Of a stretch of DNA of 64,000 nt, positions 13,027 through 16,000 are shown piece by piece (the stretch's first letter is position 1; each line of letters opens with the position of its first letter). The stretch is from Dictyostelium discoideum. Its lineage: Eukaryota. Below the pieces are notes generated by a model that did not search any database, had not been told where the DNA came from, and saw only the letters and a program-made list of their open reading frames with translations. The DNA lies in assembly GCA_000004695.1 (NCBI GenBank), contig CM000151.3, forward strand, positions 3,584,001-3,648,000. The letters are read 5' to 3'. Position numbers and translations under genes: made by a program.

Positions 13027-16000
13027 ATGAAATTATTTGAAAAGATTCAAGTTTTAATTTTAATATTTGTTTCAAATTATTATTTTATAAAATTTTCAAA
13101 TTGTCAAATAATTAATATTTATGATTTATCAAATAATAATTCGTATATTAAACATCCACAATCCACAAATTCCTATGCATGTAAATTCGAGGTTTATTTA
13201 CTTTTCAATGTTAGTCAACAGGATATTGGAAATGACCATTTGGAATTATTTTACAATGATCCAATTGTTACTTTATTAGATGTCCTTGTTTCAAATTCAA
13301 GTATCCTTTCTTTAATGTCATTGCAAGGCGATCCTGGATACATTGGAGTACAAGTTTTTAGTAGATTTTCTTTAAATCATTCAATTAATAACAGTATTAG
13401 CCTTAATTTTATATGTCAAGGTAATCATTTTTATTTTTTCTTTTTTATTTTATTTTTATTTTTATATTTTAAAAAATTACTATTTTACAGATTCTAATAA
13501 AAAAAAAAAAAAAAAAATTTTATTTATTTTTTAGCAATTGATTACACTAAATTGGATTATAAGTTAATGGTTAATAATAGATTTAAAAGATCAACTTCAA
13601 ATTATGGAGGTTATTTACAATTTACTTCAGAATACCCTCTTGGACAATTAGAATATTCAAGTAATACCAGTGGGGTTTTATCAAATACCATCGAGAATAC
13701 TGCAAATCTAGCAGGTGGATCTTTGATGTATAACTTTAGAGATAATTTATCAGTTTCTGTAAATTTTGTAGGAATATATAATAATAGTATCTATATCGAG
13801 TATCCCTCATTATATTATACCAGTATGTATTTATTTTTAATTGTTATTATTATTATTATTATTATTATTATTATTATTATTATTATTATTATTATTATTA
13901 TTATTATTATTATTATTATTATTATTATTATTATTATTATTATTATTATAGTTATTAACTTTTTTTTTAGATATTGATGTAAATTCAAATAATTCAATAG
14001 TAACTATGTATCCAAATCAAGTAACACAATATAATGAATTTGGGTTTGGATGTCCACCTCTTTTTACTATTACAATTAATAGAACAACTGACGAATATCA
14101 ACCATATTTTTATGTTTCTTTAATAAACGGTTTGGGTACTGGTAATATTCAAATCTATCCTTTATATGAAATTAATAAAATGGCAACATATATTGGTATG
14201 TTTGATGGTGCAGTAACTCCATCATATTATACTCTATTTTCTCAATCTGATAATTCTCTTACTGAAATCTATAAAGTTGAAAATTTAACTGTAACCAGTA
14301 AGTTTATTTTTTGAAAAATTAAAAAAAAAAAAAAAAAAAAAAATTAATATTAAAACACACAAACTAATTAATTAATAATTTTAGAATTAAAAAAACAATC
14401 TTTTTCAACTGTTGTTATTGCAACTTATTTACATGGTAATAATGAAACGTTATACAATTCATCAATGTATACAATTTCATTCAATAGTGGTATTTTAAAG
14501 CAGGTTGATTTTTTCCCAACAGTTTATCGTTTCCAATCATCATCATCTGTAATTTTAAATTGGCCATTTGGGTTTGAAAGTGGTCAGAATTTTAATTTCA
14601 ATTTTAAATCATCACATCTACAAAATTTATTTTCAATCAATAGCATAAGCTCATTTACCACCGATAAAAACATTTCAACTACTGTACAATCAGATATAAA
14701 GAGTAATTTTAACAATATTAAAATTAAAAAAATCATTATGATTAATTTTTTAATTTTTACTAATTTATTTATTTTTAATATTTTTTTGAAAATGTAATAG
14801 TAACTCCACAAGAACCATTTAATGTCCAACTTTTAAATTTTGAATTATTTTATCTCTTTAATGATAATTATTTGTTAAGATTTAAAATAAAAAAAAGTTC
14901 ATTTGATTATTTTATAGCACTTAAAGGTTTTTCAAATATTTTAAGGTATGAATCAATTGTAGAAGAAGATAATGAAGTAGTGGTTTTTGAAACAGTTTTT
15001 GACTTTTTTAAAAATTATGGGTTAGGAAATTTTTACATTTTCGATTCATTAAATAGAATGAAAAGTTATTTAGTTAATAATTATTATTCAACGGACCCAC
15101 TTGCAAAATATTCAGAACCATCAGAGAATTTAAATAATTTTTTAATTGAAAATGTATCATTCAAGTATAACTATATCGATGTAACAAATAAATCAGCAAC
15201 AAATGTAATTTACTTTAATTATAATGGTACAATTGATCCAAATAGATTACCTTATTTTTATTTAACTGATACAGTATCCTATAGTGATATTAGTAATATT
15301 CAATATGATTCAATAAGATATGCAATATGGAATTCTACACTTTTAAAATACCAAGTTGAATTTACAATACCAGCAAATATCCAACCTGGTTCAGTTCCTT
15401 ATTTAATAATTTTAAATTATCGTTCAAAATTATCAAGTGAATTCTTACCATTGTCAGCACAATTATTTGTAACATCAGAAAGTAAGTTATTAAATTTCTA
15501 ATAATAATAATAATAATAATAATAATAATAATAATAATAATAATAATAATAATAATAATAATAATAATAATAATAATAATAATAATAATAATAATAATAA
15601 ATTATTACTTTTTTAAAATATCTAAATATCTTATTTTTGTTTTTATTTACTACTATTTAGATTATGATGGATATGGACCAATATTTAGTAATATTGAAAA
15701 GGTTAATTCAACAAATGAATTTGGTTGGAAATTTACAATAGATGATCCAATTAATGGTTTTGATTATGCTGATATTATAGTTAGAGGTGAAATGGATAGT
15801 TCAACTTATAAATTTCATTTAACAACTCAAAATTTAACAAGAGGTGATAAATTTAATGGTGATTATCAAATTAATATCACTATATCAAGTAGATGTGCAT
15901 CTCAAAATTATATTATCACACAAGTTAAATTATATGATACTCAAGGTAATGCTTGTAGATTTTCAGTATCTGAATCATTTAGTGGTGGTATTAGAAATCC

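Follow-up and report, generated by a model that had tools for sequence, protein, structure and literature searches.

Triplet repeats that have expanded within introns are known from the Arabidopsis gene IIL1 (GAA/TTC in Bur-0, where the expansion is strain-specific) and from intron 1 of human FXN. In Dictyostelium discoideum, simple sequence repeats (SSRs) make up about 11% of the genome (PMC9234386), and AAT is the dominant trinucleotide in surveys of Dictyostelium SSRs (PMC13487327). Intron loss in the same organism was surveyed by Ma et al. (2015; PMC4683709), who counted 441 precise and 2 imprecise losses, found that the lost introns lay further from the 5′ end, considered that their data favoured a reverse-transcription model, and judged SSRs unlikely to facilitate the losses. 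Here we consider a locus at which both subjects come together, in a stretch of 64,000 nucleotides (nt) of chromosome 2 of D. discoideum AX4 (contig CM000151.3, positions 3,584,001 to 3,648,000; 74–84% A+T; hereafter the window). It contains five tandem paralogues, A to E, for ComC-like EGF-domain proteins, all of them with the Pfam domains DUF7035, DUF7034, DUF7949 and ComC_SSD. The last intron of this family, intron 5, is present in copies A and B, where it carries a long trinucleotide array, and is absent from copies C, D and E. It was known already that the introns are part of the public annotation, that Dictyostelium introns can be lost precisely, and that AT-rich triplet SSRs fill non-coding DNA. 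What is new here is that the intron is, from comparison of homologues, ancestral and underwent one precise loss, and that the repeats are secondary and independent of each other. We hold it to be very probable that this whole account is correct, that is, that an ancestral intron was kept in A and B and lost exactly in C, D and E, the arrays being later and independent additions.

Gene A (13027–17879, plus strand; 1408 amino acids; XP_644336.1) has a six-exon model (13027–13420, 13535–13822, 13971–14297, 14385–14702, 14801–15481 and 15661–17879) with five introns, every one of them in phase 1. Its intron 5 (15482–15660, plus strand) is 179 nt long, runs from GTAAGT to TTTAG and is 94% A+T. The junction reads ...TCA GAA A/GTAAGT...TATTTAG/AT TAT GAT GGA TAT GGA CCA, and splicing yields ..FVTSE/N/YDGYGPIF.., identical to XP_644336.1 (P0018). 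Gene B (22161–26989, minus strand; XP_644339.1) has five introns, as in A; its intron 5 (24398–24538, minus strand) is 141 nt long, is also in phase 1, and runs from GTAAGT to CTACAG. On the minus strand its junction reads ...TTA TCA A/GTAAGT...CTACAG/AT TTC GAT GGA, which splices to ..YVTLS/N/FDGYGPIF.., as in XP_644339.1 (P0019). The 5′ ends of both introns match the 5′ consensus of the organism, GTAAGT, and both introns end in AG; in each the phase-1 split codon specifies N (A/AT) and lies opposite H (CAT) in the alignment with C, D and E. Removal of the GT..AG segments from A and B leaves an uninterrupted open reading frame (ORF) that is colinear with C, D and E and, in spliced A, free of stops over 1408 codons. 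The feature is thus predicted to be a conventional U2-type GT–AG phase-1 spliceosomal intron, the fifth and last of the introns of the gene family. The arrays within it are a perfect (TAA)34 in A (15499–15600, plus strand; 34.0 copies and 100% match by Tandem Repeats Finder, TRF) and a perfect 27-unit array in B (24408–24489, minus strand, (ATT)n on the sense strand; 27.3 copies and 100% match by TRF). As the splice sites fall in non-repeat flanks, the arrays are expected to be spliced out.

The remaining copies are uninterrupted at the site. Gene C (29046–33571, minus strand; XP_644341.1, 1380 amino acids) reads ..VSKHFDEYGPIF.., gene D (34473–38976, minus strand), a near-duplicate of C, reads ..VSKHFDAYGPIF.., and gene E (42926–47521, minus strand) reads ..ESKHFDEYGPIF.., the translation being ..SKHFDEYGPIF.. 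or ..SKHFDAYGPIF... The positions equivalent to the junction are 31201/31202 in C, 36625/36626 in D and 45135/45136 in E (all minus strand). Once the introns of A and B are removed, the five copies align without a gap across the junction, with no indel at all. The annotated model of C keeps introns 1–4, and the intron 4 equivalent can be read directly in the DNA of C and of E (at about 45840–45912 in E), so it is only the 3′-most intron that has been lost. Two C/D/E-type copies of D. cf. discoideum and the C-type copy of strain ACTFIW are likewise intronless in their DNA. The first-pass annotation of the window had reported a microsatellite-bearing intron in A and B that C, D and E lack at the equivalent codon, and the GT..AG boundaries, the indel-free junction and the public gene models all bear this out. 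The coordinates that it gave for the intron of B (24401–24524) have to be replaced by 24398–24538, and its description of the introns as made almost entirely of repeat was an overstatement, the arrays accounting for only 57% of the intron in A and 58% in B. It had also matched SKLL in A with SKHF in the intronless copies; the codon position is right, but the ‘SK’ of SKLL is a product of the GTAAGT splice site in A and is not homologous to that of SKHF.

Whether the difference arose by gain or loss can be judged from homologues in other species, the DNA of which was examined and the exons mapped. A phase-1 GT..AG intron splits the same codon (X/xx, followed by x-D-x-x-G-P) in homologues from four species: D. 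citrinum (P0020/L011, the orthologue of B; intron of 89 nt), D. firmibasis (P0030/L010; 71 nt), D. dimigraforme (P0003/L002; 117 nt) and D. purpureum (P0006/L003; 72 nt), the last of which shares with the window a neighbouring GDPD-domain gene (1792–3927 in the window). None of these four introns of 71–117 nt contains a microsatellite. Overall, position and phase are conserved at six loci beyond the window, drawn from five taxa, the codon being split in phase 1 at each. In a neighbour-joining tree of the non-homogenised parts of the proteins (200 bootstraps), C, D and E group with their orthologues from D. cf. discoideum and ACTFIW in every replicate (100%), and the clade is nested among intron-bearing lineages. 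The sister of this clade is A+B together with D. citrinum P0020 (89% support), the node that unites the two has 88% support, and beyond it branch D. firmibasis, then D. dimigraforme (96%) and, outermost, D. purpureum P0006 (100%). From this distribution the intron would be ancestral to the family in group-4 dictyostelids. Because the outgroups carry the intron and the C/D/E clade is nested within them, a single exact loss on the C/D/E stem is the most parsimonious history; parsimony would also place the loss before the duplication that separated E from C/D, before the C–D duplication, and before the split from D. cf. discoideum. A phylogeny of the copies had been proposed at the outset as the way to polarise gain versus loss, and the tree and the outgroup introns together give loss in C, D and E, not gain in A and B.

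As to how the intron went, we infer as the most likely course that the gene from which C, D and E descend would have recombined with a reverse-transcribed, 3′-biased cDNA, which would have removed intron 5 to the exact base and left introns 1–4 unaffected. Three features that the reverse-transcription model leads one to look for are found here, namely presence of the intron in outgroups, flanking exons free of indels, and a 3′ bias with the upstream introns kept. The case resembles the losses catalogued by Ma et al. (2015; PMC4683709) in its exact excision, in that the intron furthest from the 5′ end is the one lost, and in that the upstream introns and the outgroup intron are kept. It differs from them in being a loss between tandem paralogues of one genome rather than between orthologues, in predating three further duplications, and in that its mechanism is argued from the pattern left behind.

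Several points weigh against this account. The case for splicing is built on gene models and comparative logic, and the sole product in the protein cluster of A that does not come from annotation, P0072 from a Logan contig, corresponds to the ORF as read through the unspliced intron, with ..TSESKLLNF at its end, and is for that reason uninformative on splicing. In AX4, the array of B stops 10 nt before the 3′ splice site, and inspection by eye showed no obvious yUnAy-like branch motif, the Dictyostelium branch consensus being itself poorly defined; in the ACTFIW allele of B, the region between array and 3′ splice site contains TTAAT (again by eye). Selection to splice may have ceased to act on copy B, which in AX4 carries a nonsense codon. 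The intron is also absent from the D. purpureum paralogue P0053 and the D. cf. discoideum paralogue L004, and the genes used as outgroups may be paralogous, not strictly orthologous. The losses in P0053 and L004 show recurrence, so the deepest ancestral state is not fixed, and across the wider family loss at the intron 5 site has probably been recurrent. Lastly, the evidence for reverse transcriptase is circumstantial, and the same end state would be reached if the intron had been deleted exactly from the genome, or converted away by a paralogue without it.

The L004 sequence (L004 3120–3200, P0007) comes from a distant paralogue, intronless and 7 nt short between the conserved QL and GP codons, with the exon frames offset, and the public model opens a new gene there; the shortfall could be an imprecise intron deletion or the mark of a pseudogene. 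Given this broken gene model at the site (the 7-nt shortfall and frameshift), L004 was left out of the polarity inference.

The alternative that fares best is one that concerns the manner of the loss: C, D and E might have lost the intron through exact genomic deletion, by microhomology or non-homologous end joining, or through conversion from an intronless paralogue or retrocopy. Intronless members of the family do exist elsewhere (P0053 and L004), L004 has just such a 7-nt shortfall as an imprecise deletion would leave, and the exon immediately downstream of the site has been homogenised among the paralogues (95–100% identity), which implies that inter-paralogue conversion is active there. 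Yet upstream of the site identity is only 50–70%, too low for a conversion tract between paralogues to have spanned the intron; no microhomology is visible at the extant boundaries of the intron in A or B; and the loss is base-exact, without a flanking indel, in an organism group in which 2 of 645 losses were imprecise (PMC4683709). Moreover, the 3′-most intron alone has gone and the four upstream introns stay, a pattern attributed to reverse-transcription-mediated loss. We therefore regard deletion or conversion as improbable, and retain recombination with cDNA as the likeliest route.

The homogenisation just mentioned has a sharp edge at the intron site. Comparison of A or B with C/D/E gives a nucleotide identity of 50–70% as far as the final exon base ahead of the site, 95–100% for about 270 nt after it, and then lower values again; the homogenised block of about 270 nt (15661/15673–15930, plus strand; 95–100% identical among the five copies) has its 5′ edge within 12 nt of the intron site. 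A second block of 95–100% identity covers the last 900 nt or so of the coding sequence (CDS) in all five paralogues, and the flanks of both blocks are 40–85% identical. Three genomes (AX4, ACTFIW and D. cf. discoideum) show the step, which among all the paralogues goes from 50–80% to 95–100% identity. Within the block, paralogues resemble each other as much as, or more than, orthologues do (98.8% for B versus C of AX4, compared with 97.7% for each orthologue pair). In the protein, the intron 5 site falls at the N-terminal boundary of DUF7035 (residue 234 is the first of the domain in a 968-residue partial translation of E), the split codon aligning with a His at about 236–237 of the same translation. 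The pattern of identity has the look of concerted evolution, by gene conversion among the paralogues, acting on the first part of DUF7035, with the edge of the tract at the exon boundary. Around the junction, upstream GC content is 30–34% in C/D/E and 27–31% in A/B, a difference (and a sample) too small to bear on biased gene conversion. It is conceivable that the intron acts as a barrier to inter-paralogue conversion, or as a break-prone initiation point for it, by virtue of presence/absence heterology and unstable arrays. If so, the intron would insulate the fast-diverging N-terminal recognition half of the protein from the homogenised DUF7035 block, and this would explain why A and B keep the intron beside a converted exon. 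We think such a causal role for the intron or its repeat unlikely, because the step also separates C and E, which have no intron, and exists in strains that lack the array of A.

The arrays themselves are younger than the intron that contains them. In A, intron 5 is 179 nt long with (TAA)34 in AX4, 99 nt with no TAA run of at least three units in strain ACTFIW (GCA_054859355.1), 81 nt with (TAA)3 in strain ACTFIR (GCA_054859385.1), and 111 nt with (TAA)4 in D. cf. discoideum (GCA_054859205.1). The four introns have in common the flanks GTAAGTTA... and ...TAATAAATTAC-TTTTTT-AAAAT, in which TAATAAATTAC is the seed, and the 21 nt of exon that precede the intron do not differ among the four genomes. 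Shared flanks and a shared seed, with 34 units in one lineage and 0–4 in the others, lead us to conclude that a seed of (TAA)2–4 expanded about ten-fold in the AX4 lineage alone. In B, AX4 and GCA_054883475.1 (L007) have an identical array of 27 units, and ACTFIW has one of 30 units, in an intron of 151 nt (L008 17186–17336); the D. citrinum orthologue has none. The B array therefore appears to postdate the divergence from D. citrinum, and its length is polymorphic within D. discoideum (27 or 30 units, depending on the strain). We considered the possibility that the repeats of A and B are homologous, and rejected it: they are of AAT class and ATT class, respectively, on the transcribed strand, and they differ in age. 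Opposite strand classes and unrelated flanks mean that the two arrays do not descend from a common ancestral repeat. They would have originated, twice independently, as replication-slippage expansions of short AT-rich seeds, which an unconstrained host intron of about 90% A+T would permit. The first-pass annotation had seen in this locus something relevant to intron gain and loss and to repeat-mediated instability, with repeat length across strains as a check. The strain comparison does reveal variation (34 versus 0, 3 and 4 units in A; 27 versus 30 in B), but the repeats, as later and independent expansions, have no detectable tie to the presence or absence of the intron.

This relative timing bears on the converse proposal that the intron was gained in A and B, or in their ancestor, for example through an AT-trinucleotide repeat that supplied splice signals, C, D and E being ancestral. 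On the five copies of the window alone one gain is as parsimonious as one loss, A and B being sisters (89% bootstrap), the repeat does form more than half of the body of each intron, and the most distant paralogue sampled, P0053 of D. purpureum, has no intron. Against this, the same site and phase are occupied in the homologues of D. firmibasis, D. dimigraforme and D. purpureum (P0006) that branch outside A+B+C/D/E, all of them free of microsatellites; the intron of A is nearly repeat-free in wild strains and in D. cf. discoideum, which implies that the intron is older than its repeat; and the splice sites are in non-repeat flanks. A gain would be recognised by intronless outgroups throughout and/or a source sequence, and here the outgroups carry the intron and the repeat is the younger of the two. 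Gain is thus very improbable, and an ancestral intron, lost from C, D and E, remains the reading that we adopt.

There is next to no likelihood that the repeat is instead retained and translated as a poly-Asn or poly-Ile homopolymer, of the kind found in many Dictyostelium proteins: AAT/ATT arrays elsewhere in the window do encode poly-N (for example 2015–2098, within the ORF 1792–3927), and the 141 nt of the B intron are a multiple of 3 and in-frame poly-Ile save for one stop codon, but in the exon frame of A the read-through S-E-S-K-L-L-N-F runs into an array of 34 in-frame TAA stops, ending the ORF at 15501, the 179 nt of that intron are not divisible by 3, read-through of B meets a TAA after four intron codons and its ACTFIW allele is 151 nt long, the intron is between 81 and 179 nt long, depending on the strain, next to 21 nt of exon that do not vary, and the public models splice the repeat out.

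Similar arrays are easily found nearby. Chance origin is excluded for perfect trinucleotide arrays of 81–102 nt, yet such arrays are common here: the window has 12 perfect AAT/ATT arrays of at least eight units. Intron 2 of A (13823–13970, plus strand) is another microsatellite-filled intron, with 35 perfect TTA units (TRF, 42); in ACTFIW and ACTFIR, it has poly-T tracts of about 45–55 nt instead, and in D. cf. discoideum mixed short AAT/ATT runs. Further afield, intron 1 of D. firmibasis P0030 (L010 697–921) contains (AAT)35, and intron 4 of D. citrinum P0020 (L011 1890–2236) contains (TAA)20+(AAT)44+(AAT)14. Microsatellite-filled introns thus recur across the family and are not peculiar to the intron 5 site. 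A reading of the two introns as structured RNA was also tried and set aside, both folding worse than shuffled sequences (z = +4.25 and +1.45); the whole window gave no Rfam matches, and no tRNAs were found.

In all these respects the arrays are like the AT-rich SSRs described for D. discoideum (PMC9234386), with which they share perfect AAT/ATT units in non-coding DNA, length polymorphism among strains and an absence of structure. What sets them apart from D. discoideum SSRs generally is only that an array was acquired independently by each of three introns, namely two paralogous ones and another in the same gene. The likeness to IIL1 and FXN lies in an intronic triplet expansion in one lineage (34 units in AX4 versus 0–4) beside a short seed elsewhere; the motif here is AAT rather than GAA, and there are tens of units, not hundreds.

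Some features of the gene models and of the surrounding DNA remain to be described. The spliced A, B and C models are residue-for-residue those of the public AX4 proteins XP_644336.1, XP_644339.1 and XP_644341.1, so that intron 5 of A and B is already spliced out in the public AX4 gene models, which are themselves predictions; no public protein for D or E was found in the protein collection searched. Gene B contains an in-frame TAA at 22935–22937 on the minus strand (RELDFNSN*VNLY) where its paralogues have CAA. XP_644339.1 masks this stop with a 72-nt ‘intron’ (GTACAA..TTAAG, about 22935–23003), dropping 24 conserved residues, and this sixth intron of the public B model is probably an annotation artefact. 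The stop codon is missing from strain ACTFIW and is found in assembly GCA_054883475.1; in the AX4 lineage, B has probably become a pseudogene recently.

The arrangement of the cluster also varies. In AX4, a segment of about 1.8 kb (19702–21474) lies in inverted orientation between the 3′ ends of A and B; it is upstream of A in ACTFIW (L008 9169–7026) and in D. cf. discoideum, and in ACTFIW the spacing between A and B is only 233 nt. A short ComC-like fragment is present at 21758–21940 of the window, and the remnant of a sixth copy, of C/D type, at 40332–40622 (minus strand). The latter is internally deleted and degenerate, and is intronless at the site; its deletion fuses ..SKHFNEYGPI to ..DYGGYYSGYSSESL, and there are frameshifts. 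In D. cf. discoideum the A orthologue (L001 10001–11325) is divided between two gene predictions, P0008 and P0001, and 1.4 kb is missing from the 3′ end of its CDS, so that A appears to be truncated in that genome; a B orthologue was not seen in the 21 kb of D. cf. discoideum examined. The N-terminal-half exon of A (14801–15481) in AX4 diverges by about 4% in nucleotide sequence from those of two further assemblies that bear the D. discoideum label, and by 7% from that of D. cf. discoideum (L008, L006 and L001 were compared). This is high for conspecific strains, and suggests either rapid evolution of a surface-protein family or cryptic species.

For the organism at large, knowledge of intron loss and of SSR dynamics in D. 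discoideum is left unchanged by these observations, which are ordinary for this genome. What the locus provides is a fully polarised case within 64 kb, in which one loss of a 3′-most intron was inherited by three tandem duplicates and lies beside two sister copies that bear the intron. It also dates two independent triplet expansions, the array of A being confined to the laboratory AX4 lineage (34 units versus 0–4) and that of B being shared among strains and polymorphic in length. Strains could be told apart by these arrays, which could also offer a natural way to ask whether an AAT array of about 100 nt affects splicing in Dictyostelium.

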